Shown one piece after another: positions 3,001-21,708 of a DNA stretch of 32,000 bases. Numbering within the stretch: the stretch's first letter is position 1; each line of letters opens with the position of its first letter. The notes under the pieces are model-generated. The model searched no databases, was not told where the DNA came from, and saw nothing but the letters and a program-made list of their open reading frames with translations. The DNA comes from Promethearchaeota archaeon (lineage in GTDB: Archaea > Asgardarchaeota > Lokiarchaeia > Sigyniarchaeales > SOKP01). The stretch lies in NCBI GenBank assembly GCA_030606485.1, contig JAUWGH010000004.1:330001-362000 (forward strand). The letters run 5' to 3'. A program made the position numbers and the translations under genes.

Positions 3001-3254
3001 CCTGATTGCCAAAATTCAGGAGTTTCGATAATAAAAATAACAATCATTGCAATAATAGTTATTGTTGCTAATCCAAAGATTAAACCGTAAATAACACACA
3101 CAAACCGATCCAAAATTGAAAATTCTCCTTTTTTAACAATAGAAACCTGTTTGTATATAAGTAAAAATCCGAAAATACTCGTGCCAATGTAAAAAATTAA
3201 TAATAGAATGGAAATTTCATTCCATAAATTGAATAGATCTCCGAACACCCCCAT
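1..3254 (-). CDS. Large membrane-anchored HEAT-repeat (alpha-solenoid) protein, 3' end runs off the window (>1080 aa)
   Basis: Missing from the ORF track because there is no stop in the window. Manual translation from ATG 3254 (MGVFGDLFNLWNEISILLIFYIG...) gave no stop in any stretch I translated, and the frame is open at position 3. The first ~365 aa hold many hydrophobic segments. These are followed by HEAT-like units such as LLPLIKDAEWHIKYYAIMVL, LLQDSDYKVQEETLKFL, KLKHPNKNVRAAAAFSL, LMNDPNKEVRTEIF and LLDPNEAVRNSAIKAL. Confidence 0.85.
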   Translation of the reverse strand, partial: MGVFGDLFNLWNEISILLLIFYIGTSIFGFLLIYKQVSIVKKGEFSILDRFVCVIYGLIFGLATITIIAMIVIFIIETPEFWQSGVSPPEIPPYVLILPMIASLFYISGYPLFDFIFIAWTEKKSEGLTPFHEFIGKKIINRFPKPYSLLVAVLLYFMFFLFPPIMIWLITNGPVVIIWMSWMLIYPLMILTFYGAKGYVAGISNVYYHLPELNRYFFLGFENGKRSMEEFGRDPAPRIILGVMLFVFVWTWISFIQTVNYYFSGSMAISTMSYAWMVIIVLIFGIIGYFTRFWGRKIKYRGIDVYFAGYLIAAVGLNVLINFLIVNANKLENIFNSWIFTQPINTRFIEFVPAAIIEEVILLSFILFYIINLKNEFTQNLRYSMITKSGQTFDPIPLFNFIKNSDKRIRDHAEETIKLMFERIPRKGDIDLTSNKYKNALFDGICDPSSNSKRISTEILVQLENDAPDAILSWIIEGLKSPNYDKKIPILETLIKANENLISQIPINVLLPLIKDAEWHIKYYAIMVLSRIPSKSLNYIALTEFEHLLQDSDYKVQEETLKFLIKSPKKFPLALVIEKLKHPNKNVRAAAAFSLQGISIDDLDSSTVNELISLMNDPNKEVRTEIFTTIAKIGNFKEYFIPIKPFLDGLLDPNEAVRNSAIKALEKYHDEVPTALNLDYLLSKMASSKFEIQYSILRLLGKIWETNPEKITDILLKYIKSDDELIKNSISNMIINIGKQNPEMVFSKLITIPDSAKFITKGIITKTIINIVKENPKLFIPKLLVNLNSDLEHIKLTSINSLSELAEDYIDLISIDPFINILKTEGNKQFKTEASKIISIIAIRKPNYVKPLISVFLNTIIAQEKSVKITLSKSLINIAKKSPEIIPIDPIINLLKDKEPFVRESAANVLFYIGHKVPDKAANALIDSISDDEWVVRDAVIKSLGNLIKDIKNYDIILNQLIKMLDDDQKWVRRSSMEILTEIPNISPKLIPFNKISKNLRDNDERVRESSIKLIKIYSLEDLDEIFPYIVDLLNDPSDSVREKTVISVSQLINKIGIKNLLSTLLKLLSSDTPINAQRSVAKI

Positions 3255-3436
3255 ATTAGACACTTTAAATTTTAAAATAATTAATTAATTTTCTAATTAA
3301 ATTTTATTTTATATTGATATTTTAATATTTAATTTTTAAAAAGTAATGAATCTTATTTTTTTAATATACGGCAAGTTATAATTTATTTGTGAAATTTTCT
3401 TAAGAATTGACAATCTTATTGAGTTAGTATATTAGA

Positions 3437-3988
3437 ATGCTAAAATTAGAAACAGAGATCAGCTTATATTTAGAGAGATTGAAAATTATTTTTTTAAATA
3501 AAATGATAGTTGTAGAATGTATTAAAGATTGTGACCGAATTAATTTATTTAGTGAAAATATTGGACCTTTCAAAAGAGGACGAACTTATAAACTACCGTT
3601 TTGGAAAATTAAGCCCTTTTTTGAAAGAAATTATTTTAAAATTCAGTCAAAGAATGAGATTAATAGTTCTTTAATTCAACAATTTGCTGAAAATGAACGA
3701 GATAATACAAAATTAGTAAAAAGACAAAATGATTTCTTTATAGAGATTAAAGAACTTAAAAGATTGATTAAAAATAAAATTGAGAATAGAATATATCCTA
3801 AAGAAGAATTAATTAAATATCAATTGCATTTAGAATTTTTACTGCATCAAAGAATCTCAAAAATTGAAAAGTTAGCTACTAGTACACCATCAATTGAAAT
3901 AATGGGAAGATTAACTGATACAGAAGAGATATTATTTGAGGGATTTAGAAGCTTAATAAAAGATTTTAAAGAATTTTTATTAGATTAA
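3437..3988 (+). CDS. GINS complex subunit (B-domain then A-domain order, Gins23/Psf2-like); probable start ATG 3503
   Basis: N-terminal beta-rich B-domain pattern IVVECIKDCDRINLF..IGPFKRGRTYKLPFWK, followed by a helical A-domain ending RISKIEKLA...LTDTEEILFEGFRSLIKDF. Confidence 0.75.
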   Translation: MLKLETEISLYLERLKIIFLNKMIVVECIKDCDRINLFSENIGPFKRGRTYKLPFWKIKPFFERNYFKIQSKNEINSSLIQQFAENERDNTKLVKRQNDFFIEIKELKRLIKNKIENRIYPKEELIKYQLHLEFLLHQRISKIEKLATSTPSIEIMGRLTDTEEILFEGFRSLIKDFKEFLLD

Positions 3989-4047
3989 ATCTAAAATTTT
4001 ATTCTTTTTTTATTGCAATATTAATTTATATGTCCCTTTTTCTGTTC

Positions 4048-6735
4048 TTATTCAATGAAATCATAGTAGTCAATAATTTTAACAATTAATTTTAACAGCC
4101 ACGTTGGAATCAAACTGCTTCCATAATCTAATAACATTAGATGATCACTTTCTTTTGAATGTAATCCATTTTCAAAGTCAGAAAAATACAAGCCTCCACT
4201 AGCTTTTGGTGGACGCCCAAAACTTTCACACAACTTCCAAGGTACGACAAGATCAGTTGTTATATTCCAATTCTCTAAATTTTTTCGTGTAGCAACCCAA
4301 CTTGAATCGCTATAAATTTGTAATTTTTCCCCAGTTATTAAAAGGATCTCTCCGAATACATTAATTGGCCCAATACCTTTGATATAATCAACATTTTTTA
4401 TTCCAATTACATTTTTTCCAATCTTTAGAAATTTTCCAATATTTAATATTCGGATATTATTTTCTAGCATGTTATAATTAAATGATTGTCGAGAAATGAC
4501 GTATCCAAGATATTCTCCATTAATATATACTTCGGAGAAACATCCAGCAATAACTTGCAAAAAGGCACTCTTAATTTCCTCTTTAATCTCAATTATCTTT
4601 TTAAAATAAGTAGGACTACTTCTTGCCCTTTTTGCTTCTATTTTCTTTTTTTCTTTAAGTGACTTAACAAAATAGCTATTAAAACTTCTTGTTTTTCTAA
4701 CTTTCAAGTAAATCCATTCACTTGGAATATTAGGATTTTCCCATTCAATACCTTTTTTTATTTGTTCAATTTTATCATCATAAAATCTTGCCAGCCAATA
4801 ATAATTATTTTTTAAAGTTGTGAAACAATCAGATTTCGCACTTTTTAACCATAAATACTCATAATCTTTGAATAAACTAATAATATCATCTTTTAATTCC
4901 GCAATCTCTTTATGTATTTTAGTAATTTTCTCTTTTTTTGCTTTTTTAAGATTGAGTTTAACTAATTTTTTTGAATTTATTTGTTTCTTACAGAAGAATT
5001 GTATTTGTTTCGCAACAAATCTTAAATTTTTAATATTTATTTTATTTTTCAATACAATATTCTCTAAATCAGAACAATATTCAATTATTTTATCCATATC
5101 ATTTATTATATCATTAAAGTCCTTTATCTTTCTAGTTCTCATATATTTTGATGAATTTTTTCCATAAGGATGGCTAAAAAATTTATTATAAAACCTTTTC
5201 CATCTAAAATGTAGTAATTTTTCATCTTGAATTCTTCGAAATATATCAATAATTTCTTTAATTCTATCATCATATAATCCAAAGAAATGAAGTATGAGTT
5301 TTTTCCAAAATTCTTCTAAAATAATTTCTTTTCCTGGGTTCCATGCAACTTCTGCAGAAAGGATAAATCCATACAATCGATTTTCTCTAATTTCTTTATT
5401 TCGGTAATCACCCCATGCAGATGTGATTTCACCTAACATTCCTCCCAATTCATAACCATATTTTATGAGATTGATAATATTTTTTTCAAAACTTGATATT
5501 GACGGGAATGGACGATTATAATCCCAAATTGAAGGACTTACAATAAATGGAAGATCAAAACTTTTTATCTTATCCAAAATTTTGTGCTTTTTTCTTTTAT
5601 CATATTTCCAGTACATTATAATCATATCTTTGGGAAGATCTTCGAGTACTTCTGGATATTTATAGAGAATATCATGATAAATAATCACATATTTATTCCC
5701 ATATTTCTTCACAGTATCGTATATCTTGTTATAATGATTAAGATAAGCCTGAGCAATACCGATCTCTTCTACGTACTCAGAAGATGCCCCTTTTCCTACA
5801 TCCCAACTCTCATCAGCAGCTATATGGAAATATTCTGTATCAAATACATCGCTTAACTCTCCGATCATGTCATCTAACAATGGATATATTTCTTCATTAC
5901 TGATATTTAAACTATTAGAGCCGGGAAATTCCCCATATTTCCAATAATTTTTATTAATTAAGATATTTTCCCAATGACCAATTGTTTGAAATATTGGAAT
6001 TACTTCAACAAAATGTTTTTTTGCATATTGAGATACTTCTTTAATTTCTTCTTTAGAATAAGATCCACGATTTTTGCCAATTTCAGGGTGATTTCGAAAT
6101 TTAAACATATCTTGCATATATACGAGATAATATTGATTAATCTTAAAATGGCTTAATTCCAGAATAAAACGTTTAAGATTTTCAACAGTTGGGGCCTGAC
6201 CTCGTGAAATATCATCTGAAATCCCCCTAATTAGCAGTAAAGGATAATCAATTATGCCAAACTCAGGAAAAATTAACTTATTTTCTCCACAATTTAATAG
6301 TTGAATAAAGGTTTGAACTCCATAAAATATTCCTTGAGCACTTTCGGCTTGGATAATTAATTTATTATTTAATGTGTTTAGAGTATATCCTTGTTGTAAG
6401 AAATTATCTTGATTTATTATTTGATTAATATTTATATCTAAAAATGCTTCTTGAAGAAAAATTGAATTCTCATTATCATTTTTTAATTTTTGAACCTTAA
6501 TTATTTCTAAATTTTCAGATAAACCAAATTCAATTAATTTATCTTGGAGCTGTGAAATGACGTGCTTAAACTCCTCTGGTAAATTAGTTTTAACCTGTGA
6601 ATTAGAAGTAATTTTATTATATTTTTTAAAAATCTTTATGAATTGCGGTTCAGGTAATATTTTTATTTCATTTAAATTAAAATCTGAAGTTTTTTTAATT
6701 GAATCTATTATTAAGAACATTTCTTTCAGTTGCAA
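4048..6735 (-). CDS. Glycoside hydrolase family 20 (beta-N-acetylhexosaminidase-like) with a C-terminal beta-sandwich domain; probable start ATG 6720
   Basis: QGYTL...[21 protein letters not shown] (GH20b domain), [29 protein letters not shown], and catalytic FHIAADE. The C-terminal [10 protein letters not shown] segment is typical of glycosidase accessory domains. No obvious signal peptide. Confidence 0.88.
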
Positions 6736-6775
6736 TTTTAAGTTGATCTATTAAACAAAATTTAAAACTTAATCC

Positions 6776-6949
6776 ATGGAAAAAAATTTTTCTAATATTA
6801 AATATTATATTACTTTAATGGAAGAAGTACTTATAGACATATTTTTAATTAAGGAAAAAGGTGCTTGGGGTGCATTTAAACCAACACAAAATGAAATAGT
6901 TAATGAGACCGTAGAGAAAATTGAAAATATCTGTAAAATGATCGAATAA
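6776..6949 (+). CDS. Possible 57-aa small protein or gene remnant
   Basis: Manual translation MEKNFSNIKYYITLMEEVLIDIFLIKEKGAWGAFKPTQNEIVNETVEKIENICKMIE, below the ORF-track length cutoff. No family recognised. Confidence 0.3.
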   Translation: MEKNFSNIKYYITLMEEVLIDIFLIKEKGAWGAFKPTQNEIVNETVEKIENICKMIE

Positions 6950-6995
6950 ATTAATCAATTATTTTCTTATAATTTAATTAATCTATTTTTATCTC

Positions 6996-7289
6996 TTATT
7001 TTAGTTTGATTAATTTTTCAGTTAAATCGATTTTATAATAATTAGCAGTACATATTATTGTAATAACTAGATCCGCTAATTCCATACCAAGATCTCCCTT
7101 AACTTGATTAGATTTGGGTGTTTTATTTTTTTTTATAATATTAATTTCACGCTAAATCTCGCCCAATTCTTCAAGAATAGCAGCTAACATTGAAAGAGGT
7201 GGCCAATATCCGCCACCTTCATTGATAATCCAATCATCAATTTCTTTTTGAAGGTTTGAAATAGTAAAATCTTTAGAAAATGAGCTCAT
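6996..7289 (-). pseudogene. Disrupted MazG-like nucleotide pyrophosphohydrolase (YpjD type)
   Basis: Translation MSSFSKDFTISNLQKEIDDWIINEGGGYWPPLSMLAAILEELGEI*REIN...GDLGMELADLVITIICTANYYKIDL matches the YpjD pattern (Q.EVD..I...GYF.PL.M.A.L.EELGELAREVN...E.GD......LAN). In-frame TAG at 7152-7154. The RDK.R-like C-terminus (IRDKNR) is in a different frame. Confidence 0.8.
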
Positions 7290-7498
7290 ATTTAATTAAG
7301 TTATGGGAATTTTTAAAAAATTAACTAAGATTTTAAATTTTTCCTTAAAATTTTTGATAAAGAATTAGTTCATTAATCATCCAAATTCTCTGTATATTCC
7401 AAGATTAGTAAGAAAAATAATAAATTTAAGAATAATCTTCGAATTTTTTTCTTTAGAGTTTCTTTACGAAACTTTAAAGAATTTTTAATTTTAACGTT

Positions 7499-7861
7499 TT
7501 AAGGTTCTAAAGAGATCCAAGTAAATAAATTAAATATTACAACAGTAAAATTATTTTTCTGTGTTATTTGAGCTGTAAATCTCCCGGTGATTATTTTCTT
7601 TGATAGTTTTAAATCCCATGCAGAGAAAGCTCCATGATAATAGCCCTCTTTGAGATTAATTAAAATTGATCCTGGTTTTATTAAAATTTGGTATAAACCA
7701 TCTTCGAAGAAATATTTTCTTTTTTTCATCAGAGAATCGATGTTTTTCATAATAAGTTTATTTAAATCTTTATATTCTCCCTCTTCAAGTATGTTATTTA
7801 ATTCTAATTCAAAAATTTTTTGAACAGAAGTATTTAACATGAGACTAATTTTAATTTTCAC
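7499..7861 (-). CDS. Hypothetical protein, 120 aa
   Basis: ORF track; protein-like composition; no family recognised. Confidence 0.45.
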   Translation of the reverse strand: MKIKISLMLNTSVQKIFELELNNILEEGEYKDLNKLIMKNIDSLMKKRKYFFEDGLYQILIKPGSILINLKEGYYHGAFSAWDLKLSKKIITGRFTAQITQKNNFTVVIFNLFTWISLEP

Positions 7862-8189
7862 AAAAATATCTTAATAGACCCGACAAAATTAGTAGTAAAT
7901 AATAAGAAAATTTAATGCTTTTAGTTAAATTCAAACTTTTTTTTTGTGTAATTTTAATCTCGAATTCAGAAAAAATAGAGATTTTTATATTTTGTTTTTA
8001 AAAAAATTAAGACACAAGATAAATAATTTTATGGAATTAATTAAATTCAAATTCTAACTAAATAAAAATGCGGAAAAAATTTGCAATCTGAACAAAAATT
8101 AATCAGATAGAAAAAATTTTTAAGAATATAGAATATTGACAACTTCTAAATGCTAAAACGAGTGAAAGTTCCCTTAGCTTAATTAAAAA

Positions 8190-9263
8190 ATGGGATGGAG
8201 AGAAGATATGAAAACGTTCAATCCATTAAATTTACAATTTGATAAAATTAATGAAAAAAAAGGAACCTTAACGTTTAGAATTTCAAAAAGCAATCTAATG
8301 GATACTTTTTTACAAAATATATTGATACTTGATATTCAAGTTGGAGATTCGAGATTTTTTCTGCATCGAAATAAAAACTTTGATTTAATTTTTATCCACT
8401 GGAGCACAAGAAGGGGGATAAGAGTGGCAAGGGTGAATATTTGGGGATTAAATCTTAATAAGGGTCTATTTATTTCTTTAACTTGGTCGGAAGAAGAGAA
8501 TAAACTATATGTTGGTGAACAAGGTGGGTTAAATTTAAAATACAATAAAGCAGAACAAAGAAAGGGAATAATAAGGAAAGGAATAAATGGTGAATTATAC
8601 AAAATAGGAGATGAAGGTGTAGATGTGGCATGGTATCACATAAGGGAAGATTCTCGCGATATTCTAATACCAACTGCAAAGGAAATATGGGAGTTCAAAA
8701 TTAAAAGAATTAATATCATTATCGAAGGTTGCAAGTCAAAAAATTTTCTTTTTGAATCGACACTTGTCCTACAGTGTCTAGTGATGTTAGTAACAGGCTT
8801 TGAAGTTTTCACACAAAAGAGATTCATAGAGATAGAAAAAGAAGGTAATATACCGAATATTAAGTCTTTAATGAACGATTTTGCTAGGGACAAATATACA
8901 AAAGACAAAGTGAAAGATTATGCAGAATCAACTGGTAAATCCCTTTTGGAAAGTATGCTTGAATTACGGAATGGGAGAGGTTTAATAAATTTCCAGAATT
9001 GGAGAAACTGTAAAAGGGCGTATAACAGGGCATATGGAATAATATTTGGAGAATTATTTCCCTTAGAAAGTAAAATATTTGAAAATATAAAAAAATATTT
9101 TGAATGGAGGCATAAAATAATCCATTCGAAAGTGGATATGACAATATTAAATTTTGATAAAGTCCCTGAAGAAGAACCAATTTTTGCCAAAAAAGAGTTT
9201 ATTAAACAAGTAAGAGATGATTTTATTAAGCTTATTAATAAATTACATGAATATATTGTTTAA
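8190..9263 (+). CDS. Putative HEPN-domain RNase fused to an N-terminal beta-rich (LamG/ConA-like) domain
   Basis: C-terminal helical region with LVMLVTGFEVF, FQNW..CKRAY and an R-X4-H motif RHKIIH (9108-9125). The N-terminal part has KGTLTFRI...LFISLTWSEEENKLYVG, resembling LamG strands. Confidence 0.65.
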   Translation: MGWREDMKTFNPLNLQFDKINEKKGTLTFRISKSNLMDTFLQNILILDIQVGDSRFFLHRNKNFDLIFIHWSTRRGIRVARVNIWGLNLNKGLFISLTWSEEENKLYVGEQGGLNLKYNKAEQRKGIIRKGINGELYKIGDEGVDVAWYHIREDSRDILIPTAKEIWEFKIKRINIIIEGCKSKNFLFESTLVLQCLVMLVTGFEVFTQKRFIEIEKEGNIPNIKSLMNDFARDKYTKDKVKDYAESTGKSLLESMLELRNGRGLINFQNWRNCKRAYNRAYGIIFGELFPLESKIFENIKKYFEWRHKIIHSKVDMTILNFDKVPEEEPIFAKKEFIKQVRDDFIKLINKLHEYIV

Positions 9264-9572
9264 AAATAACTTATTCTTTGGAAAAATTTATCTAACTTAG
9301 TATTTTGAGTTCTTCACGATTTTCTACATTTTATCCAAATTCTACTTTCTATAACCTGATCTGCTAAATTTTTTATTCTATTTTTTTTCCAAGTTCAAAA
9401 AATGAAAATTAGAAATTCAATTAGCCTAAAGATTTTAAATATTTTTGACCTTAAATTTTTTTTATTCATTCTACATTCTGGCAAAATCTTTTTATATGAG
9501 AAAAAATATATATTTTATACTAATATATATTAAAAAGAAATTAATACAAAAAAAAAATATATATTAATTAAA

Positions 9573-10043
9573 ATGTTATCAAATAATAAACTAAAAAGAG
9601 TCCTTAAAAATAACGGTGCCGAAAATATTGCAGAAGAATCAATTAACTTAATTAACGAAATTGTTTCCAAAATTTCGGAAGAAATAACTTTAATTGCTGT
9701 TAAATTAACCCATTTCAAAGGTACAAAAACATTACAGAAGGATGCAATAAAAGTGAGTTTAAAAACCTTTCTGGGAAGAGATCCAAAAAAATTGGAAGTC
9801 AAAACATTCAATATTTCAAATATTAGAAATATTTTAGCGAAAAGTGGTGCAAAAAGGGTTTCAAAAGAAGCTATTGATTATATGAATAAAGTAATCACAT
9901 GGATTGCCGAAGAAATTGCACTAAACGCTGTTATTTTGACACATACAAACCAAAAAAAATTAGTAGAAGAGGACTCAATAAAATTCGGTTCTCAAAAGTT
10001 TCTAGGTAAAGATATAGAACAAAACAATGTGGAGAGTGTTTAA
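9573..10043 (+). CDS. Tandem (doublet) histone-fold protein, divergent
   Basis: Two internal repeats align with archaeal HMf histones: KRVLKNNGAENIAEES...EEITLIAVKLTH..GTKTLQKDAI and RNILAKSGAKRVSKEA...EEIALNAVILTH..KKLVEEDSI. Both end in FLG. Confidence 0.85.
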   Translation: MLSNNKLKRVLKNNGAENIAEESINLINEIVSKISEEITLIAVKLTHFKGTKTLQKDAIKVSLKTFLGRDPKKLEVKTFNISNIRNILAKSGAKRVSKEAIDYMNKVITWIAEEIALNAVILTHTNQKKLVEEDSIKFGSQKFLGKDIEQNNVESV

Positions 10044-10046
10044 AAA

Positions 10047-10868
10047 ATGGAAGATATGTTTATAGCGCATGAAAAAACAATTTGTCATGTAATTTGTGAA
10101 GCTATGCGAAGTGAAGATTTCGAAATATTAAGGGGAATACAATCCTTTGATTTATCTCCATGGATGGGTCTAAGAGGTGTTGAAGTTATTGTAACAGTTT
10201 TAGTCGATTTAACAATAGCTTCGAATCCTTTTAGATTTAATCTAGATTCCGAAGCAGAAGAGATCTACAATGAATTTGGTATATATGATATAATAAGGAA
10301 GAAATTTGAATTAGAAACAGAAGGCAAAATTCCTTATTCAATATTAAGATATCTATTAGGCGATTTGAAAAAAAAACAACAAAAATTAAGTAAATTAGCA
10401 TCGTTTGGTTTAGTTAATATTGAGCCAGCTGATCAACCAATAGGTGATAACAGTTTAATATCCCTTACAGAAATTTGGGAATCACTATTAGAAATGATAA
10501 TTAATGATGAATTAGAGTTAAAATTATTTGTTAGCTCTTTAGGAAAAATGCTTGCGATAGGTGTAGGAGAGAAAGGGATAAGATTCATAAAACCAATTAT
10601 TATAGCAATAAATCGAGCAGAAAGCAATGAAAATGAAATATCTCTAGAGGAATTTCTTAATATATATCTTGATATGGGATTACCTTACTATTATTTTCCG
10701 ATTTCAATAAGAACAGATGAGAAAAAGAGCGAAATAATTAGATTAATAGCGTATAAAAATAATGAGAAAGTAATTTTTAACTTACATTCAGTTAGAGCTT
10801 TGCAAATTTGGCGGACAGCTGCACAAAATTATTTAATTGAACAAAGAAGATTAAGAAGTGGTCTGTAA
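10047..10868 (+). CDS. Uncharacterised 273-aa protein, paralogue A (putative tandem winged helix)
   Basis: Full-length similarity to the next gene (LRGIQSFD vs LRGIQTFD, and further blocks). wHTH-like segment KLSKLASFGLVNI...SLISLTEIW. Confidence 0.8.
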   Translation: MEDMFIAHEKTICHVICEAMRSEDFEILRGIQSFDLSPWMGLRGVEVIVTVLVDLTIASNPFRFNLDSEAEEIYNEFGIYDIIRKKFELETEGKIPYSILRYLLGDLKKKQQKLSKLASFGLVNIEPADQPIGDNSLISLTEIWESLLEMIINDELELKLFVSSLGKMLAIGVGEKGIRFIKPIIIAINRAESNENEISLEEFLNIYLDMGLPYYYFPISIRTDEKKSEIIRLIAYKNNEKVIFNLHSVRALQIWRTAAQNYLIEQRRLRSGL

Positions 10869-11690
10869 ATGGTAATTGAAGGAATAGAGTATAAATATTT
10901 GATTGAATCATTTGGAGATCTCATCTATGATGGATTAAACAGTAGTAATGATCGTCTTTTAAGAGGAATCCAAACCTTTGATGTATCAACTTTTTCACAC
11001 CTTGAAGGAATTGAATCGGTTTTGTCTGTTATGTTTGCATTAACTGTTGATGGGAAAATTGAAGCGGATGATCTTGAAAGAAGGTTAAAAGATGATAAAG
11101 ATTATTACGAAAAAACAGGAACATTAGAAAAAATGAAAGAACGATTGAAGAGAAAGAAAAATGGAGAAATTCCTTTCTTTTTTATCAAAAATGCATGTAG
11201 TGGATTGAAAAGTGTAGTCAAAAATTTATTTTTACTTAAAGAGCATGGCTACATTGAAATAATTGGGAAAGACATTGATAATTCTTTTCTTAAATTAACA
11301 TCTAAATGGGAAAAATTTATTGAAGATACAATAAAACGCGGTTATGAAGCAGAGATATATGGCAGTTCTATTAGTAGAATGATAGCATCAGGCATATTGC
11401 AAAAAGGGTTTAGGTTAATATTTCCGATTGCTTCTGCATTAATGATTGCCGAAAAATCTAAGGGAGAATTGAAATTAGAGAAATTCAAGCAATTATTTGA
11501 AGATAGTGAGTTAAAATACCGACATTTTACGAATGTAATAGAAAGAGATCAAAAAAAGCCCAAAGATATACAGTTAATACATCATTTAGGTGATAAAAAA
11601 GTGATTTTTAATACTGCTTCGATATACGCTATAAAACAATGGATAAACTTAGCAGAAAAATTAAAATTAAAAATAGGACGAACTATATAG
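10869..11690 (+). CDS. Uncharacterised 273-aa protein, paralogue B (putative tandem winged helix)
   Basis: The start codon directly follows the stop of paralogue A (TAA|ATG). wHTH-like segment NLFLLKEHGYIEI...SFLKLTSKW. Confidence 0.8.
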   Translation: MVIEGIEYKYLIESFGDLIYDGLNSSNDRLLRGIQTFDVSTFSHLEGIESVLSVMFALTVDGKIEADDLERRLKDDKDYYEKTGTLEKMKERLKRKKNGEIPFFFIKNACSGLKSVVKNLFLLKEHGYIEIIGKDIDNSFLKLTSKWEKFIEDTIKRGYEAEIYGSSISRMIASGILQKGFRLIFPIASALMIAEKSKGELKLEKFKQLFEDSELKYRHFTNVIERDQKKPKDIQLIHHLGDKKVIFNTASIYAIKQWINLAEKLKLKIGRTI

Positions 11691-11706
11691 AGAGGATTAT
11701 GATTTA

Positions 11707-12426
11707 ATGTCAAGGCATACTGAAGAAACCTTTAAAATTTTTGCACCTAATGAGATAAATAAGGGTAGAAATGATGTCATTGGTGAAGAATATCAAAAAA
11801 TATTAGAAGATGTTAGAAAGATAATACGGTTTCAGCAGAAATACCATATAGAAGATGGAATTCCTGGGTTTCTTTTCCATGGTGATGTTGGATTAGGGAA
11901 AACTCTAATTGGAAAAATAATAGCTAAAGAACTTAATAGTCATATGATTTTTATTGATGGTACGGATATTGCTCGTTCATTATATGGACAGTCAGAACAA
12001 CAAATTTCCATACTTTTTCAAAAAGCAGGCCAATTTAGACATTCTATTATCCTAATTGATGATTGTGAATCAATTTTTCCAAAAAGAGATTGGATTAAAG
12101 GTGAATCTTGGCATCTCGCTCAGAACAATGTGTTTTTTCATCGATTAGACGAATTGGATACTTCTAAAATATCAGTAATTTTAACCACTAATAGATATGA
12201 CTTAATAGATAAAGCAATTAAAGATAGATTGCATAATATAGAATTTCCTTTACCTAGTAAGGAAACTCTAATCGAAATCGCAAAAAAAATGTGTTTAAAA
12301 TTAAATTTAGAATTTGACGATATTAGATCAAAAATTGAGTTTGAAAATATTAAATCTATGCGGACATTAGAGAAAACTGTTCTATCGCTTTATATAGATA
12401 AAATTCTTAAGAGTGAAAGTATTTAA
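11707..12426 (+). CDS. Minimal classical-clade AAA+ ATPase (single AAA module)
   Basis: Walker A GDVGLGKT (11881-11904), pore-loop-like SLYGQSEQ, Walker B IILIDD (12046-12063), sensor-1/second region of homology LTTNRYDLIDKAIKDR, then IEFPLP. Confidence 0.9.
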   Translation: MSRHTEETFKIFAPNEINKGRNDVIGEEYQKILEDVRKIIRFQQKYHIEDGIPGFLFHGDVGLGKTLIGKIIAKELNSHMIFIDGTDIARSLYGQSEQQISILFQKAGQFRHSIILIDDCESIFPKRDWIKGESWHLAQNNVFFHRLDELDTSKISVILTTNRYDLIDKAIKDRLHNIEFPLPSKETLIEIAKKMCLKLNLEFDDIRSKIEFENIKSMRTLEKTVLSLYIDKILKSESI

Positions 12427-12439
12427 AAAAGATATAAAA

Positions 12440-12468
12440 AATAGTCCCGACGCAGCGTCGGGACTATT
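12440..12468. other. Perfect 14-bp inverted repeat with a 1-nt spacer (hairpin or palindromic protein-binding site)
   Basis: AATAGTCCCGACGC-A-GCGTCGGGACTATT. The arms are exact reverse complements, and the GC-rich core stands out in an AT-rich background. An A6 run lies at 12436-12441, giving a U-tract after the stem on the minus strand. Confidence 0.9.
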
Positions 12469-12470
12469 GA

Positions 12471-12477
12471 AAGGTGA
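12471..12477 (+). promoter_or_regulatory. Shine-Dalgarno-like site (AAGGTGA) for ATG 12483
   Basis: Archaeal-type GGTGA motif 5 nt upstream of an in-frame ATG. Confidence 0.55.
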
Positions 12478-12833
12478 AAAAAATGACATTTATATTAGTT
12501 CATTGTATGGAAAACAGCGTCCAAAAGATGATATGGGATTGGAAAAAAGGACGACACAGAAAAAATTTGCAATCCTATTTTATTGAAAAGCTTGACGCGA
12601 GAACTTTCCTGATGGAAGCAAATGGAGAATTATTAACTTTATTATGGTCCTTAAAAAAAAGATTTAATAATAAATTAGATATATTTATTACAGAACCAAT
12701 TTATGAAAGAGATTTGCCAAAAACTGTAAAAGAGGTTGTAAAATGTCTAGAAGAAAAACCAACAATGAGAAAAGAACTCGAGAAAGTAAAAAATTTGAAA
12801 ATAAGATGCTCAGTGAATTTGAGCATGGAGTAA
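12474..12833 (+). CDS. Small alpha/beta protein (predicted beta-alpha-beta-beta-alpha-beta, ferredoxin-like); probable start 12483; may be the 5' part of a frameshifted gene
   Basis: ORF track; SD motif; residue pattern TFILVHC / helix / FIEKL / RTFLMEA / helix / LDIFITEP. Confidence 0.7.
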   Translation: MKKMTFILVHCMENSVQKMIWDWKKGRHRKNLQSYFIEKLDARTFLMEANGELLTLLWSLKKRFNNKLDIFITEPIYERDLPKTVKEVVKCLEEKPTMRKELEKVKNLKIRCSVNLSME

Positions 12834-12940
12834 AAGAATTAATAGATAAACACCAAATATTTAAAAAGAATCTATCAAAAAAAGTTGAGGATGAATTAGA
12901 AAAATTAATTAATAATATTGTGGCGATTTATTATGAGTAG
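12743..12940 (+). CDS. Short helical ORF in the -1 frame of the previous gene, overlapping the SMC start
   Basis: Its stop TAG (12938-12940) overlaps the SMC ATG at 12933, which suggests translational coupling. It overlaps the upstream ORF by about 90 nt. Confidence 0.55.
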   Translation: MSRRKTNNEKRTRESKKFENKMLSEFEHGVKELIDKHQIFKKNLSKKVEDELEKLINNIVAIYYE

Positions 12941-14789
12941 TAATATTATGAGAGTAAATTTTGAAAATGTTGGAGTCTTTAGAGGTCCACATTCATTTGA
13001 TTTTGAAAAAGGTTTAAATCTTCTAAGAGCTCCTAACGCAAAAGGAAAAACTAGTTTCACAAGGGGCCTGGAATTATTTTTAATTCCTTCTTCAGAATTA
13101 AAAGGGAAGGGCTATTACATGAACCTTTTCGCAACGGCTCCGGATGAAAAGCTTGAGGTAGAATTAACTATTAGTAATCAATCATGGATACGTAGATTTA
13201 GAAGACCTCAAAATAGTAGAAATTTGCTAGGAGTTTCGGAAGAGCCATTCGGATTAAGAGGAATTAATTTGTCTCAAGTATGTTTTGCAACTCCAGAAAA
13301 CAAGTTAATGAATTCAATTCTATACGGTAAATCAATAAGAGGATACATGGAAGATATTTCAGGTAGTAATTCTTATGAGGTTATTATTAAATCTCTAGTA
13401 AATTTTCAACGAAATTATAATCGACAATACCAAAAATACAAAGATGATTTAATACGATTGGATGAAACAAAAAGATCTTTAAAGAATGATTTTGAGGAAA
13501 AAGAAAAATATAGAAAAGAACTAAAACAACTTCCTGAGGTTGATGAAGAACAATTCTTAGAAAGTAAGGAAATTCGAGATCAATATTTCGCTAAAAAAAG
13601 CAAAAAGGAACAATTAGATAAAATAATTAGAGAGGAAAAAGGGCAACTTGAGAGCCTTGATGAACAGATTAAGGACTTAAAAATTGATATTAAAAGACAA
13701 ACAGAATTAATCTCTGAAATTGAAGAGGACCATCCAAAAATCACACAAAAAATCGAAGATTTAAAAGATTTAATGGATAATCAGAATAAATCAAAGAAAG
13801 AAATTCAACAGGAATTATCAAAAATTGATGATCAATTAAAATCAATAAATGATAACTGGGTTAAAAGAAAAAAATACGGAGAAGAGAAATGTTATGCTTG
13901 TGGTAAGCCATTAACTCTAAAAGAACTTCAAGATTTTGAAAAAAGTCTAGAAAATACTAAAAAAGATTATTCACAAGAATTAAAAAAAACAAAGAGACAA
14001 ATTGAGGATTTAAAAGATGAAATCAACGAATTGCAAATTCAAGAGAGAGAATTGAGCATTCAACGAACTAATTTAGCTAAGAATGAAAAAAGTTTAGCGA
14101 GAAGAGAATTAGAACGTGATAAAATTAATAAAGATCTTGACTCTGATTTACTAGAACAGAAATCGCATCAGAAAGAAATCGATAAATTATTAGAAAATGT
14201 TAGTGAGGAAATTATTGAAATTAAAAAAAAAAGAGAGAAACTTGAAGATAGAATCCAAATTATTGAATCTAAAATAAAAGTCACACAAAAAAGAGTTAAA
14301 GAATTGGAAAAAGAAACAAAAGGCGCTGAAGTACTTACAAATAAGATTGAATTTATTGATGAGAGTATTTCTTATTTAAAGAAAAGGAAGGAGCAAATCA
14401 CTGAGAAAGCAGCAGAAAAATTTAACGATAAAATCAACGAAATATATAATCAACTTGGTTTTACTGATTTTAAAGAAATTGGAATTAAAGAAGACTATAA
14501 TATTTACATCTCTAGAGAAAAAGATGGTAAAATTTTATCAGATTGGCCATTGGAGGCATTATCTACTTCTGAGCGATATACAATTGGTGTTGTTCTATTA
14601 ATTGCGGCTAAAGAAGAATATTTACCAGAATTTCCTTTATTCGTAATTGATGAAATTATTACGAGTTATGACCAAGATCGTATGCAAAAATTAATAGAAT
14701 ATGTAGCGAATGTATCTGATTATGTTATAATCACTCAATTAGCTCCTGAAAGTTCTATAGATGAATTAACAGTAGAACATATTTCATAA
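12918..14789 (+). CDS. SMC-like ABC ATPase with a central CxxC zinc hook (Sph/ClsN/Rad50-like); probable start ATG 12933
   Basis: N-terminal head RVNFENVG.F...FEKGLNLLRAPNAKGKTS (Walker A 13029-13055), long coiled coils, CYAC at 13890-13901 (mid-protein), signature LSTSE (14559-14573) and Walker B LFVIDE. Confidence 0.92.
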   Translation: MWRFIMSSNIMRVNFENVGVFRGPHSFDFEKGLNLLRAPNAKGKTSFTRGLELFLIPSSELKGKGYYMNLFATAPDEKLEVELTISNQSWIRRFRRPQNSRNLLGVSEEPFGLRGINLSQVCFATPENKLMNSILYGKSIRGYMEDISGSNSYEVIIKSLVNFQRNYNRQYQKYKDDLIRLDETKRSLKNDFEEKEKYRKELKQLPEVDEEQFLESKEIRDQYFAKKSKKEQLDKIIREEKGQLESLDEQIKDLKIDIKRQTELISEIEEDHPKITQKIEDLKDLMDNQNKSKKEIQQELSKIDDQLKSINDNWVKRKKYGEEKCYACGKPLTLKELQDFEKSLENTKKDYSQELKKTKRQIEDLKDEINELQIQERELSIQRTNLAKNEKSLARRELERDKINKDLDSDLLEQKSHQKEIDKLLENVSEEIIEIKKKREKLEDRIQIIESKIKVTQKRVKELEKETKGAEVLTNKIEFIDESISYLKKRKEQITEKAAEKFNDKINEIYNQLGFTDFKEIGIKEDYNIYISREKDGKILSDWPLEALSTSERYTIGVVLLIAAKEEYLPEFPLFVIDEIITSYDQDRMQKLIEYVANVSDYVIITQLAPESSIDELTVEHIS

Positions 14790-14809
14790 TGTTTTGGAGG
14801 TTTTAATTC

Positions 14810-14971
14810 ATGTCTCAAAATATTAGTGTATCTAAAGTTGTTAAACTTGGTAATAGTTTGGCTATGGTTCTTCCGAAAGAGATGTGTGAAGAATTAAATA
14901 TTAAAAAGGGAACTTATCTCGGTATTCAATTAGTAGGAGAGAATATAATAATTAAAAAGGTTTTGAAATAA
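14810..14971 (+). CDS. AbrB/MazE/SpoVT-family DNA-binding protein, 53 aa (absent from the ORF track)
   Basis: MSQNISVSKVVKLGNSLAMVLPKEMCEELNIKKGTYLGIQLVGENIIIKKVLK fits the K.GNS..V.LPK.....L.I..G pattern. GGAGGT SD at 14796-14801. Confidence 0.88.
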   Translation: MSQNISVSKVVKLGNSLAMVLPKEMCEELNIKKGTYLGIQLVGENIIIKKVLK

Positions 14972-15004
14972 ATTAGTTGGTGTAAATAGAAGGAAAATTT
15001 AAAA

Positions 15005-15697
15005 TTGTGGGTTTGTTTATTGACTTTATTTAAAGATATACTACCAAATGATAATGTGTTTATATGGCTTGGTTCTTTTGATAATACACAAGTGAATAAT
15101 GTTTTAGTTTTAGCGGGAGGCGAAGTATTAATTTTAAAAACAATCAGAAGATTTGATTTAAATCAAGAGCAAATTCGTAAAGATCTTTTAGAAATGTCTA
15201 TAAAAGAATTCATAGATGCTTATGATTTGATTGAATTTGAATTAATAATAAATGATTTTGAAGGAGAGTTAAATAATAACAAAGAAGATTATGAAAATAA
15301 AGTAATTGAAATTATAGAAGATATAAAGGAAGGAGTTATAAATAAAAAATATCCTCCTTATATGGCAGGATTTAATGAATATTACATAATAGAATTTAAA
15401 AATATGATAAATAAATATCTGCATAAATTATCTAATTTATCAAATTCTAAAGATGCAATTAATCATCTCGAGGATGTAATAGATGAATGTGAAGAAAGAA
15501 TTCAAAAAATTAAGAAGGAACATTTGAAAAAAGAGGTTTCTATGTTAGAAAAAATAAAAAAAATAAGTAAATCCCCAGGATTTGATGAATTACACAAAAT
15601 TCAAAAAGAAATTGACGAGGAAGCAAATAATCTTAGGAATAAAATTCGTAGAGCGACAAAGAAGTTTGAGGAACTTAAAAAGCTATTTAGTAAATAA
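15005..15697 (+). CDS. Hypothetical helical/coiled-coil protein, 230 aa (start uncertain)
   Basis: ORF track; E/K-rich helical C-terminal half; no family recognised. Confidence 0.6.
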   Translation: MWVCLLTLFKDILPNDNVFIWLGSFDNTQVNNVLVLAGGEVLILKTIRRFDLNQEQIRKDLLEMSIKEFIDAYDLIEFELIINDFEGELNNNKEDYENKVIEIIEDIKEGVINKKYPPYMAGFNEYYIIEFKNMINKYLHKLSNLSNSKDAINHLEDVIDECEERIQKIKKEHLKKEVSMLEKIKKISKSPGFDELHKIQKEIDEEANNLRNKIRRATKKFEELKKLFSK

Positions 15698-15918
15698 TTT
15701 CTTCTTATAATTTCTAAATAAAGGTAAGAAATTCAATAAGAAATCAAAAGAATTTTAGAAAATTAATATTAATAACTATTAAGGAACTCAGAATATTTTT
15801 AGAAATTATTAAAAATTCTTTATATGACTGTTCAAGATTGGTTTGAAAAGGGATGAAAATATTTTGAAGAAAGAAATTTTGAAAAAATAATGAATATACT
15901 TTTAAATTAAATCTTAAT

Positions 15919-16086
15919 TTAACTCTTCTTTTTTCTCTTATTAAAAAATACTTCAAGGGTTTTTAACGATTCTGGAGGAGTATAGAGATAGGTATTAGGG
16001 TATAAATCTTCAAATGTTAATTCCGTTGGTAAAATTTCTTTTCTCTTATTATTTAGTTCGTTTTTTTCAACTTTTTTTGTTTCCAT
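15919..16086 (-). CDS. Small hypothetical protein, 55 aa (absent from the ORF track)
   Basis: Manual translation METKKVEKNELNNKRKEILPTELTFEDLYPNTYLYTPPESLKTLEVFFNKRKKKS. The ATG is preceded by a TATA-like AT tract. Confidence 0.45.
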   Translation of the reverse strand: METKKVEKNELNNKRKEILPTELTFEDLYPNTYLYTPPESLKTLEVFFNKRKKKS

Positions 16087-16246
16087 ATATATCACATATT
16101 TAAATATATATTTCTTATATTAAAAAAATAGGACTTAATATAATTAATAATTTATTTATTGATGAATTGTTCAAATAATTCTATTTAATAAAAAAATCCT
16201 AGTTTGATATAAGAATTTCTTTCATTTTAAATCAAAATATTATTAA

Positions 16247-17833
16247 TTATTTTTCATAAAAATAGTTCCAAAAGGAATTAGTCAAATCATCATTTCGTGT
16301 TATTATACGATATATTGAATCTGTAGTAGTTTCATAAAGACCTGTATAACCATCTTCTCTCTTTATTTTGAAATTTAATTTATTTGTTAGAATATCTATT
16401 AATATTTTAACACAAGTTTCGGGTTTTCTACATACAATCACACCGATTGCAACTCCTGTATTTATATCAACTTGCATCGCTAATGGATGAAATTCTTTTA
16501 AAACTTTTGCTCTATGATCCCAATAAACTTTAGTTGCAATAGCTAATATTTTACAGATTTTTTCAAAATCATCTTTATTACTATCAATAAAATGTTGCTC
16601 TTTTGTTTCCCAAAAGGTATAAGGCTGATTAATTCGATGTTTATCTAATTTTTCAACAAAACTTAACAAAAATTTTTGAAACTTTAAGAATTTTTCTTTA
16701 TCTCCTGAAGAGAGTTTATTTAATTGAGATATAAATTCTGGCTTTGAAAAGATTCCTTCAGCTTTAAAATTTAAAATTCTTTTCTTAATATAATCAAGTG
16801 GATATTCTTTTATTTTATCTATTAATTTTTCTACGGGGTCATTTGGAATATATGCTATTACAGGTTTTTTTTGAGCTAATGTAGAAGCAAGTTCAGAATC
16901 TTTTCCAATAGAATCACTTTCCTGTACCATATAAATTGTACATTTTGCTCTTTTTAGCATTAATCCTTCAAGCAACCCCTTATCTCTTGATTCTTTACAA
17001 AATGATTGAGTGGGATCAAAAAATCGTATATTTAGATTAGAGATTTGTTTATCGTCCCTTATTCTTTTTAAAAAATTAAATACCTCTTCATATTCACATT
17101 TATTTCTCATAGATGTTGCTACATATACATCTAAATAGCTGTAAATTAAATATGCAAAGGTATTTTCTAAACCCATTTGTTGAAATATTTGTATATCATC
17201 ACTTTTACATTTTAATTCATTATAAAATTTTATATATTCATTATATTCCTCAGAATTTGTAAATCCTTTTTTTTTTGATAACTCTTCTATTTCTTTTTTT
17301 AAGAAATTTAATTCCCTCGCTAATTTTTGACCAGTTAAATAGCCCAAATAATATGTATTTTTCCCATCAATATCATATACTTCATGAATGGATGTTTTTC
17401 TTTTTCTATATACCTTGTCTATGTCAATTTCTTTATAGATATCTAATTTTTTTTCAATTTTCTCTTTTGTCTTTTCAGAAAGGAATTTAAATGTGAATCT
17501 AAAATTACCAAAGTGTAATAAACTGTATCCTCTAAATTTTTCTATACCAGATTTCAATTCTTTAAATTTTAATTCTTTTTTACCAAAAAAATATTCAAAA
17601 AAACTTTCTTTTACCCTGTTTTGATTTAGCAGTAATAATATTTCATTGAATTGTACATAATTTAAACCGTATTTATTAATATCTTTAATTATATTTTCTA
17701 AAATCTTCTTTTTTGCATTATTAATAATATCTTCTGAATATTCTTTATCACATAAAAATACAATAAAAGCTTTTAAAAAATTTTCAATTATATTTAGATC
17801 AAGAGGCCTTAAGTTAATATCTTCAAATTTCAA
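16247..17833 (-). CDS. 528-aa protein with a central nucleoside 2-deoxyribosyltransferase/deoxyribohydrolase-like (TIR-related Rossmannoid) domain
   Basis: LDVYVATSMR...FFDPTQ...D.GL.E.LML.RA...IY...DSIGKDSELA..LAQKKPVIAYIP (about 16844-17131) follows the NDT pattern YxAx..., F.P, D..G...E.G.A...KPV. Confidence 0.62.
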   Translation of the reverse strand: MKFEDINLRPLDLNIIENFLKAFIVFLCDKEYSEDIINNAKKKILENIIKDINKYGLNYVQFNEILLLLNQNRVKESFFEYFFGKKELKFKELKSGIEKFRGYSLLHFGNFRFTFKFLSEKTKEKIEKKLDIYKEIDIDKVYRKRKTSIHEVYDIDGKNTYYLGYLTGQKLARELNFLKKEIEELSKKKGFTNSEEYNEYIKFYNELKCKSDDIQIFQQMGLENTFAYLIYSYLDVYVATSMRNKCEYEEVFNFLKRIRDDKQISNLNIRFFDPTQSFCKESRDKGLLEGLMLKRAKCTIYMVQESDSIGKDSELASTLAQKKPVIAYIPNDPVEKLIDKIKEYPLDYIKKRILNFKAEGIFSKPEFISQLNKLSSGDKEKFLKFQKFLLSFVEKLDKHRINQPYTFWETKEQHFIDSNKDDFEKICKILAIATKVYWDHRAKVLKEFHPLAMQVDINTGVAIGVIVCRKPETCVKILIDILTNKLNFKIKREDGYTGLYETTTDSIYRIITRNDDLTNSFWNYFYEK

Positions 17834-18047
17834 TATAATTCACTCGAAAAGAAAATTTCTATTTTCTATATATATTTAGAAATTCAATTATTAATATCAA
17901 ATAAAAAGTTAAAATTATTTCTATCTCGCTTAAAAAAAATTATTTATTTATGGAGTAGGATGAGTTTTTTATGGGAATTAAATTCAAATTTAATAGAAAA
18001 ACTCCTTTAATTAGATTCAATAATGTTTTTATGAATTTATATTGATT

Positions 18048-19204
18048 CTAATTATTATTTGAATTTTTTTTCATTTTATCCAGAATTGGTAATAATTCAG
18101 GAAATAAATAAGAAACCTGTTCATAAATAGATTCTGCTTTCTTATGGGATTTTCTTTTAAGATGTGCAAAATGAAGTTATTCAAGAATATTAGGATCAAA
18201 TTTATTTTCTCTAGATGCATTTAAGCAAAAATCTTCTAATTCTTCCTATTCCTCTTGTTTTTTCAAAATATCAACAATGAATAGAAATATTTCAGGAGAT
18301 CGCTCATTAAATTCAATCCAACACTTTAATGCATAAATTTTTGCACTATCAAAGTCATTTTGAAGAAAATATGTTTTAGCATTATATTCTAAAAAAAATG
18401 CTTTAAAATGAAAAAATTTCTATTTAATTCAATAATGCTCAAGGCTTTATCAATAAATACTTTTGCTTTTTTTAAATTCTGGTTAATATCTATATAATAT
18501 TTCAAAAGATTCATATGTGTAATTAAATCAGATTCATATAATTCAAGAATCTTTTCTGCGGTGCTGAGAAATTTTTGATACATCTGATAACCAAAATATG
18601 AGAGTTGCATATTATGCAACATATCAATATCATTAGACCGAAATTTCAAATATTTCTCACCCCATTGAATTGATGCTTCACTTTTTTTTAACCTCGCTGT
18701 GATCTTATAAAGCATTCGGAAAATTTCAAGTGCTTGGTCAGTATCTTCTTTAATTTTTTTTAGTTCAGAATTTAGCTCTTCCTCCATTTCTTTTAATGAT
18801 GGTTCATCCATTGGTAGATCTTTCCAAGTAGTTGAAAAGCCTTTATCATATTCTAAAAATTTTCTCATGAAATAGTGTTCAAAATCGGTTAAATTTCGCA
18901 TTTGGGTAAAATCTAACTTCAAATTGAATCCTTTTATGATATCAACAATAATTCTATAACCCTCATCGCTTAATTGAAAATTGAAATTCTCGAATATGAG
19001 TTCTTGTAGAACACCTCTCTGAGTTCTGAATTCAATTTCATAAAGAAGCATTTCATAAATCATATCATTTGGCATTAAAAACCAAGGTTCGTCCTTATTA
19101 TCTCTTATTGGAAAGAAGCCACGTATCTCTCGCCATTTTTTTAATGCGTATTCCAGATTGACATTATCAATTTTAAATTTATTTCTAAAATCCTTCTGGA
19201 GCAA
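18048..19204 (-). pseudogene. Decaying TPR-repeat protein gene
   Basis: ORF 18389-19204 ends in TPR-like helices. After a -1 shift near 18390-18420 the TPR-like text continues (AFFLEYNAKTYFLQNDFDSAKIYALKC...PEIFLFIVDILKKQEE*EELEDF...PNILE*LHFAHLKRKSHKKAESIYEQV). In-frame stops at 18246-18248 and 18177-18179; the frame ends at 18048. Confidence 0.72.
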
Positions 19205-19497
19205 ACCGATATTTTCCAGATCCTACTCAATATGGTCTTGAAATAACTGATCTACAGGGAAATGAGAGAGATAAATTCATAAATATAATTAAATTGAATG
19301 AAGGAAACAAAATTGAGGCTTTACGAGAGATGTGGAAAAATAACAACCAGAAATTACATTTTACCAGAGGGGATCTTAAAGGGTTTCTGGAAAACAACAC
19401 GAGCCTGGACTTTCGGACATAAAATTTCAAATTTATAGCAAAATTAATGATAAGAAGAATAAAATAAGATATTACCCATCTTAAAGCAAAAAAAGAA

Positions 19498-20340
19498 TTA
19501 TTTTTTTAGTCTCGCTAAAGAAATTATTTCTTTTATTTTATCTTTTTCTTGGAATTTTGAATAATCTTTAAAATAATCTCTAATAATCGAATATTCTTGG
19601 GGGTCGAATTTATCTTCAAGCCAATGAAGTTTAGATTTAAATGGAATTAAGGAATAAAGATTATATCCTAATTCTTTAGCTTTTTCTTTAGCTCCTTGTT
19701 CTCGATCTATTAAAACCACTACATCATTACATATAACTTTTTTATTTCTTTGCTTAGCTTCATAAATCAATTGTTTTTTTACGAGATGTGCTGATTTAAA
19801 TTTAGTTACTAAATCATCAACAAGTATAATTGTTTCACCATCCTCAAATTCACCCTCTATTAATCTATGTTCGCCATAAGTCTTAATAAATTCCTCAAAA
19901 TCCTTAATTTCTCTTCCATTAACAATTTTTCGGTTATATAACGAAGGAATTTTACTAAATAAGGTAATAACTGTTGCAATTTGTGTACCTGTTGTTGCTA
20001 AACCAAGAATTTTATCAAATTTGAATATTTCATTTATAATTAGTAGACTAAGAGCTTTTCCTATTGCTTCCAATATGGAAGCTCCTTTTTTTTTACTTGA
20101 AATATCTCTAAGAGAAATATAGACTGGGCTCCATAATCTACTATTTAATATCCACCCTTCTTTTTTATCCTGAAACCATGTTTTAATTGCTCCACAATCA
20201 TATAATAGATCAAGTATATATCTACCTATTTGTTCTTTCTTTTCAAGCCAATTATCAATTTTCTTAAAGTTAAAGTTTAACAAACACTCTGGTATTAAGC
20301 TAAAACTCTCATTAGGTAGAATTATAATTTTTTCCACCAT
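19498..20340 (-). CDS. pyrE: Orotate phosphoribosyltransferase-like type I PRTase (divergent)
   Basis: WSPVYISLR, FDKILGLATTG, YNRK...YGEHRLIEG, PRPP loop ILVDDLVTKFKS, and VVLIDREQGA...GYNLYSL. Confidence 0.72.
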   Translation of the reverse strand: MVEKIIILPNESFSLIPECLLNFNFKKIDNWLEKKEQIGRYILDLLYDCGAIKTWFQDKKEGWILNSRLWSPVYISLRDISSKKKGASILEAIGKALSLLIINEIFKFDKILGLATTGTQIATVITLFSKIPSLYNRKIVNGREIKDFEEFIKTYGEHRLIEGEFEDGETIILVDDLVTKFKSAHLVKKQLIYEAKQRNKKVICNDVVVLIDREQGAKEKAKELGYNLYSLIPFKSKLHWLEDKFDPQEYSIIRDYFKDYSKFQEKDKIKEIISLARLKK

Positions 20341-20729
20341 AATAATAACTTCATATTTTTTTTTTTATATAAATTCTTCAAAATTTTTTTGTTGCCTACT
20401 TAATAATGCCAGTAATTATAAAAACTCCACAATTATTTAAAGAGATTATTGTTTTTTATTTTTTCCATATTATTAGAATTATGTCGATATATTCATATTT
20501 TCACTTAGATATTTAGCCAAATTTTTTTTAGGGTTCTTTAATATTAACTATTTCTTTCGAGATATATAAATTTAGTCTTAAAAAATAAAGAGACTCCTAA
20601 AAAATTTAATAAAATGTAATTATTTTTAATTTTTAGATTATTTAAAAATAATTCTGGGCTTTAACGACATAATTCTCTAAAAGTCCCAAAAAATGAAACA
20701 TTTAAAAGATTTTAATATATTTAATATTT

Positions 20730-21707: not shown

Positions 21708-21708
21708 C

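Follow-up and report, generated by a model that had tools for sequence, protein, structure and literature searches.

Tandem winged-helix paralogues beside a zinc-hook SMC-like ATPase in an Asgard archaeon: candidate accessory subunits of a conserved archaeal gene module

Coalescin shapes the chromosome compartments of Sulfolobus. Coalescin (ClsN) of the Sulfolobales and Sph1/Sph2 of Halobacterium are SMC-related proteins specific to archaea (ASRPs; Yoshinaga et al. 2022, PMC9389158), a patchily distributed group thought to be derived from extrachromosomal elements (PMC11344861). In the open-access texts searched, we found no description of a winged-helix (WH) protein, AAA+ ATPase or other partner, accessory subunit or loading mechanism for ASRPs. 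Here we analysed a 32,000-nucleotide (nt) stretch of DNA (the window, whose coordinates are used throughout) in which two adjacent genes, A and B, each encoding a tandem WH protein of 273 amino acids (aa), share an operon with an ASRP gene. That the host is an Asgard archaeon is supported by the title of the closest public contig, Promethearchaeota archaeon. The preliminary description of the locus had proposed that A and B may form a heterodimeric KITE-like partner of the SMC, in the manner of ScpB, MukE, JetB or Nse1-Nse3. We prefer a different reading, to which we assign a probability of roughly 0.55: A and B are two diverged copies of a module's single tandem-WH subunit and form a paired accessory part of an ASRP/AAA+ machine. 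It is backed by the paralogy of A and B, their predicted fold, an invariant gene order, the duplication and the accessory status of the island that carries them.

The operon and its two winged-helix paralogues

The genes form a tightly packed row on the + strand, from the histone doublet to the AbrB/MazE-fold gene, with the following features (ORF, open reading frame):

9573-10043, + strand: histone-fold doublet, 156 aa (NCBIfam archaeal histone 2.7e-21, with two stretches; Pfam CBFD_NFYB_HMF 8.4e-14)
10047-10868, + strand: paralogue A, tandem WH protein, 273 aa (AlphaFold2 model)
10869-11690, + strand: paralogue B, 273 aa (colinear alignment with A)
11707-12426, + strand: short classic-clade AAA+ ATPase without N-domain, 239 aa (PF00004, 3e-23)
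12474-12833, + strand: P6, ferredoxin-like conserved protein, 119 aa
12806-12940, + strand: small helical protein, about 44 aa from an internal ATG of the ORF 12743-12940
12918-14789, + strand: ASRP, zinc-hook SMC-like ATPase with a central CYAC, 623 aa (NCBIfam NF045487)
14810-14971, + strand: AbrB/MazE-fold protein, 53 aa, frequently the last gene of the module (PF04014, 7.1e-12)
6893-19428, no strand: strain-variable island of 12.5 kb that contains the whole operon (blastn against the congener G147)

Gene A starts 3 nt past the stop codon of the histone gene, its TAA immediately adjoins the ATG of gene B, and 16 nt separate the end of B from the start of the AAA+ gene; the gene of the small helical protein overlaps its neighbours on both sides, P6 at its 3' end and the ASRP gene at its start.

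A and B align by BLASTP over 250 colinear residues with 31% identity and 55% positives (E 2e-38), a similarity far beyond chance that confirms them as true paralogues. The preliminary description had thus been right about two side-by-side ORFs of equal length with colinear blocks, and all the motif pairs that it quoted were found in the two translations. Its placement of two WH segments near residues 95-145 and 195-250 also agrees with the AlphaFold2 model of A, which was built from an alignment of 29 A- and B-type sequences (predicted local distance difference test, pLDDT, 87.6; predicted template-modelling score, pTM, 0.86) and puts WH1 at about residues 95-140 and WH2 at about 197-244. In the model, N-terminal helices (residues 1-76) precede WH1 (strand 95-96, helices 97-104 and 110-119, hairpin 123-140), three connecting helices (142-191) lead to WH2, and a long C-terminal helix (246-271) closes the chain. 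From the colinear alignment we infer the same tandem WH fold for B. An asymmetry in charge between the two proteins of the window (isoelectric point 5.1 versus 9.0) was dropped as a feature of the pair, as it is not kept in the orthologues.

WH proteins were the dominant matches in all structure searches with the model of A. No match better than E 0.2 was returned by Foldseek against the PDB, shape and feature searches of the ESM Atlas gave only weak matches to WH regulators (TM score at most 0.41, cosine at most 0.85), and a profile search of PDB sequences gave only chance matches to S100 proteins. ESCRT-II, which had been put forward for comparison, was not among the matches listed in any of the structure searches, an absence that does not speak against a resemblance.

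A and B belong to a small, unnamed and undescribed family of tandem WH proteins. Neither has a match in Pfam (none at E<=1), NCBIfam, PADLOC or PHROG, and 42 members of the family gave no meaningful Pfam match (two isolated single-member matches, E 0.001 and 0.005). A profile of both paralogues found 51 proteins at E<=1e-3 among 1.84 billion representative proteins; their lengths stay within 91-313 aa (most of them 206-296 aa), so fused forms are absent from these representatives. A and B match the family's hidden Markov model (A2) at E of about 1e-93 to 1e-97 and are the only copies in the host genome; strong matches occur in 5 of 400 genomes of the phylum and in none of four congeners, and a scan of viral contigs found no relatives.

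The number of WH genes differs among the compared loci (labelled L001-L080). Two are present in the window lineage (the window, L001, L003, L071-L075) and in L022, and one is present in L020, L021, L027 and L077-L080. Maximum-likelihood analysis separates A and B into two clades, each with 100/100 support and a long stem, and wherever a related locus is long enough to include both, the A and B orthologues lie on one contig. Because most loci outside this lineage carry one WH gene, we regard A and B as the products of a lineage-specific duplication. The WH pair of L022 groups together in the tree; since its orthology with A and B is compatible with approximately unbiased tests (p 0.075 and 0.20), a separate second duplication in the L022 lineage is possible but unproven.

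Conservation over 50 members peaks at helix 158-173 and at an N-terminal G30/Q32 motif, is middling in the recognition helix of WH2 and reaches its minimum in WH1 and its wing. This distribution suggests that the constrained part of the protein is a conserved protein-protein surface and not WH1.

Gene neighbours of the ATPase and their conserved order

The SMC-like ATPase matches the ASRP family NF045487 over its full length (2.9e-91; 306.9 bits against a cut-off of 300) and is the single match above the cut-off in the host genome. It carries a CxxC zinc hook in the middle of the protein (CYAC), and split Walker motifs, A (APNAKGKTS) and B (LFVIDE); among the PADLOC models it matches LmuB (3.9e-16) and JetC (2.2e-7) weakly. 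The family match and the zinc hook are what it has in common with ClsN/coalescin and Sph1/Sph2. The window-type ASRP is always accompanied by a WH protein, an AAA+ ATPase and a ferredoxin-like protein, and mostly by a small peptide.

Loci were retrieved through homologues of the WH protein (L001, L003, L020-L022, L024-L027, L071-L075) and, independently, through distant homologues of the AAA+ ATPase at 47-58% identity (L077-L080). In 15 of the 15 loci with enough sequence the genes for WH, AAA+, P6 and ASRP follow each other in an identical order (the loci named for this comparison are the window, L001, L003, L020, L021, L022, L027, L072, L073, L074 and L077-L080), and a WH-family gene stands directly upstream of AAA+ also in all four loci that were reached by AAA+ alone. 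The WH and AAA+ genes abut or overlap. This synteny is kept despite a divergence of the ASRP to E 1e-67 and of the WH protein to E 1e-10. The small peptide (about 45 aa) was detected in 11 of the 15 loci (the window, L001, L003, L022, L027, L072-L074, L077, L078 and L080) and not in L020, L021 and L079, the last of which has an unmatched 43-aa gene call at the same position. The first gene of the module is variable: a histone doublet in the window lineage, a single histone in L022, L025, L026 and L080, a ParB_N protein in L027 and a zinc-ribbon-like protein in L020 and L021. The AbrB-fold gene is present in L001, L003, L022, L072, L073, L077 and L080. The order of the module is thus WH protein, AAA+, ferredoxin-like protein of about 120 aa, peptide of about 45 aa and ASRP, often preceded by a variable DNA-binding adaptor and often followed by the AbrB-fold gene.

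The most conserved gene of the module is that of the AAA+ ATPase, 233-242 aa long across the loci, whose homologues at 47-58% identity carry the labels Thermococcus, Thermoplasmata, Methanocellales, Nanoarchaeota and Heimdallarchaeaceae. Walker A, Walker B and sensor motifs are conserved. Its Walker B reads DD(C/A)ES in place of the usual DE, and a block past it (about residues 127-146, consensus RDW.KG.SWH.AQNNVFFH.LD) is strongly conserved; both are kept from the Asgard loci to those labelled Thermococcus and Nanoarchaeota. This ATPase without an N-domain, immediately downstream of the WH gene, underlies the closest rival of our reading, namely that the WH proteins are its trans-acting adaptors or substrate-recognition subunits in a loader or unloader of the ORC/Cdc6 or clamp-loader kind, with A and B conferring two specificities and forming no single heterodimer. 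ORC/Cdc6 WH domains do occur among the structural matches of A, at scores no better than those of MarR proteins or Nse1, and the AAA+ ATPase is of the classic clade (PF00004, with CDC48-, PAN- and Vps4-like matches), not of the initiator clade; we consider this rival unlikely, although ahead of the others discussed below.

P6 is a real gene, kept in all loci; its model (pLDDT 83) shows a ferredoxin-like domain with generic matches only, and on this predicted fold it is not a kleisin. In the window (12474-12940) the small ORF overlaps P6 in another frame; in L027 the two are separate and non-overlapping. A -1 frameshift joining the two was considered and found unnecessary, since the 0-frame tail of P6 aligns with its distant homologues and the genes are separate in L027. 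In L024, a metagenomic contig, a gene of the phage-integrase family (1941-2420) follows P6 at the place expected for the ASRP; either an insertion or a truncation of the module may account for this. A gene of the PAPS-reductase family (567-588 aa) stands right after the ASRP in two distant loci with a single WH gene, on the same strand in L078 (10112-11878) and on the opposite strand in L027 (11858-13561), which points to a sub-type associated with a DndC-like enzyme.

The weak structural likeness of A to WH regulators raises the question of whether A and B simply regulate the operon or island as DNA-binding proteins of the MarR or PadR kind. In such regulators, which are about 100-150 aa long, one WH lies between N- and C-terminal dimerisation helices, whereas A and B, at 273 aa, carry a second WH and an extensive helical scaffold; matches to MarR, PadR and Sso10a dimers and to the WH domains of ORC/Cdc6, all of them single-WH, cover at most about 100 of the 273 residues of A. 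Conservation also peaks in the helical scaffold, and not in the recognition helices. The WH gene is internal to a translationally coupled operon, in distant lineages alike, and regulators rarely hold a fixed place among the same four partners over such divergence; the separate AbrB-fold gene would be a more obvious regulator. We consider a purely regulatory role for A and B very improbable.

Comparison with KITE proteins and defence systems

The proposal of a KITE-like partner of the SMC held in part. As in ScpB, MukE, JetB and Nse1-Nse3, there are two tandem WH domains (in A by the model with a pLDDT of 87.6, in B by the colinear alignment), an SMC-superfamily ATPase is encoded next door and the proteins probably act as a pair; their split into two diverged copies parallels Nse1/Nse3. 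The homology to KITE proteins, on the other hand, was not detected. Comparison by hhalign with the host's two ScpB proteins and with a profile of 30 Asgard ScpB sequences gave a probability of at most 3%, and no sequence or profile similarity of A and B to KITE proteins was found. To our knowledge, the KITE archetypes (ScpB, MukE, Nse1/Nse3-MAGE) are mutually undetectable by sequence, so that A and B may be KITE members despite these null results.

The structural comparison does not single out KITE proteins either. Their matches to the model of A align at most 102 residues and one WH only (none spans both WH domains), and they score within 1 Z unit of the WH domains of ORC2, Cdc6 and ORC1 and of MarR proteins. 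A and B further differ from KITE proteins in an additional N-terminal helical region and a long C-terminal helix, and in their neighbours, which are an obligatory AAA+ ATPase and two small proteins. No kleisin-like gene was found in any of the 15 loci, in line with the preliminary description, which had recognised none; the conserved small genes encode the ferredoxin-like P6 of 119 aa and the peptide of about 45 aa. The partner is a zinc-hook ASRP and not a hinge-type SMC, MukB or JetC.

The host also has genuine ScpB genes elsewhere. Just past the end of the window (C2:361998-363507; L028) lie a gene for a 332-aa ScpB, whose N-terminus carries a long acidic repeat, and a ScpA-like gene, and a second ScpB gene adjoins that of a 1196-aa SMC on contig C10; the host thus has its own SMC-kleisin-kite genes. 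These fit the SMC/kleisin/kite operons that van Hooff et al. (bioRxiv 10.1101/2024.01.07.573240) described in Asgard archaea, in a paper that leaves ASRPs unmentioned.

The tandem WH domains, the SMC-like neighbour and the mutual undetectability of KITE archetypes are what could favour A and B as highly diverged true KITE homologues, that is, a prokaryotic hetero-KITE on a cryptic kleisin-like element of the ASRP complex. Against this stand the single-WH matches tied with those of ORC/Cdc6 and MarR, the null searches against Pfam and Asgard ScpB, the absence of a kleisin gene from all 15 loci together with the ferredoxin-like fold of P6, the zinc-hook partner and the separate ScpB, ScpA and SMC genes of the host. 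We regard this explanation as improbable; A and B look like new accessory subunits of an ASRP machine, and not like proven KITE relatives of SMC5/6.

Wadjet (JetABCD) and Lamassu (LmuABC), SMC-based systems against plasmids and phages, resemble the module in being accessory and patchily distributed, in combining an SMC-like ATPase with small partners and in their frequent location in defence islands. However, the core of the module lacks a kleisin (JetA) as well as a nuclease or any other effector, it has an AAA+ ATPase and a histone or ParB adaptor, and no PADLOC model matches A, B or P6.

Genomic setting and possible role

Alignment by blastn with G147, a 100%-complete congener, showed that the flanks (1-6892 and 19429-32000) are colinear, with 92-95% identity over most of their length and 73% and 84% in two blocks, and that the island between them (6893-19428) is replaced by about 0.9 kb. 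No tRNA, integrase, flanking repeat or att-like repeat was found at its borders. Other genes of the island encode a 357-aa protein (8190-9263), a coiled-coil protein of 230 aa (15005-15697), and 528-aa and 271-aa proteins without Pfam matches. The neighbours of the module elsewhere include a GmrSD-type enzyme and a SAVED effector (L020), a SIR2 protein (L021), a CBASS cyclase and a SAVED-HNH effector (L003), DarT (L022), DarT-Macro, a SNF2 helicase and the PAPS-reductase gene (L078), transposases and a methyltransferase (L077) and integrases (L024, L027); three loci (L072, L079, L080) are set among housekeeping genes. The module is therefore accessory, horizontally mobile and patchily spread, and often lies in defence or mobile regions. 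This context agrees with the proposed origin of ASRPs from extrachromosomal elements (PMC11344861) and argues against the A-B pair as an ancestral feature of a eukaryote-like SMC5/6 complex. Since the module core holds no nuclease, a defence role is guilt by association only.

Further genes related to chromosome structure were noticed around these loci. After its operon, the related Promethearchaeota contig L001 carries a second, unrelated SMC-like cluster (8155-11717) with a Cys-rich protein of 273 aa, a protein of 249-253 aa and a 665-aa SMC_N/AAA_23 ATPase with a CPLC hook; this cluster is followed by a C-terminal SMC fragment and then by ScpA. In the window, a HEAT-repeat protein of more than 1087 aa (3-3263, - strand) has, beside generic HEAT matches, one to Pfam Cnd1 (condensin non-SMC subunit 1; 1.6e-18) and, judged by these matches, may be a hawk-like protein in an Asgard genome. 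The topoisomerase VI B gene (22908-25907, - strand) is unusually long (999 aa) and adjoins a normal topoisomerase VI A gene (21709-22893).

If A and B are the paired accessory part of an ASRP/AAA+ machine, the ancestral WH protein would have been present in two copies per ASRP dimer, and after the duplication in the window lineage the A-B pair would have replaced the ancestral homodimer; we think it likely that the two work as a pair in its place. The pair would then be a non-SMC part of the machine, whose conserved helical scaffold, with helix 158-173 and an LRGxQ motif in the N-terminal part, may dock on the AAA+ ATPase and/or the ASRP heads, while the WH domains and the histone-fold adaptor may touch DNA. 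In this way the A-B pair could bridge the ASRP heads and/or the AAA+ ATPase to DNA and to an exchangeable DNA-binding adaptor, and the AAA+ ATPase, whose own substrate-binding N-domain is absent, could load, reset or dismantle the assembly. The surveillance, entrapment or maintenance of particular DNA molecules is more likely to be the job of such a module than the folding of the core chromosome.

More tentatively, and at odds that we consider doubtful, the WH pair might record a transition from homodimer to heterodimer in the accessory subunit of an undescribed class of SMC-family machine, a zinc-hook ASRP driven or reset by a dedicated AAA+ ATPase, with exchangeable histone, ParB or zinc-ribbon adaptors, that carries out kleisin-less DNA surveillance or the control of mobile genetic elements across Archaea.

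Any bearing on eukaryogenesis is tempered, as this is an accessory island gene set and not an Asgard SMC5/6-like complex. If the more tentative reading is true, A, B and their neighbours would be the first candidate partners for the coalescin/Sph family. The set of gene partners that is fixed around this branch of ASRPs, made up of a tandem-WH protein, an AAA+ ATPase and a pair of small proteins, provides clonable candidates for the way in which a kleisin-less zinc-hook ATPase is assembled on DNA, and the one-copy and two-copy loci offer a natural comparison for the change from a symmetric accessory dimer to a heterodimer, the step behind the eukaryotic Nse1/Nse3.
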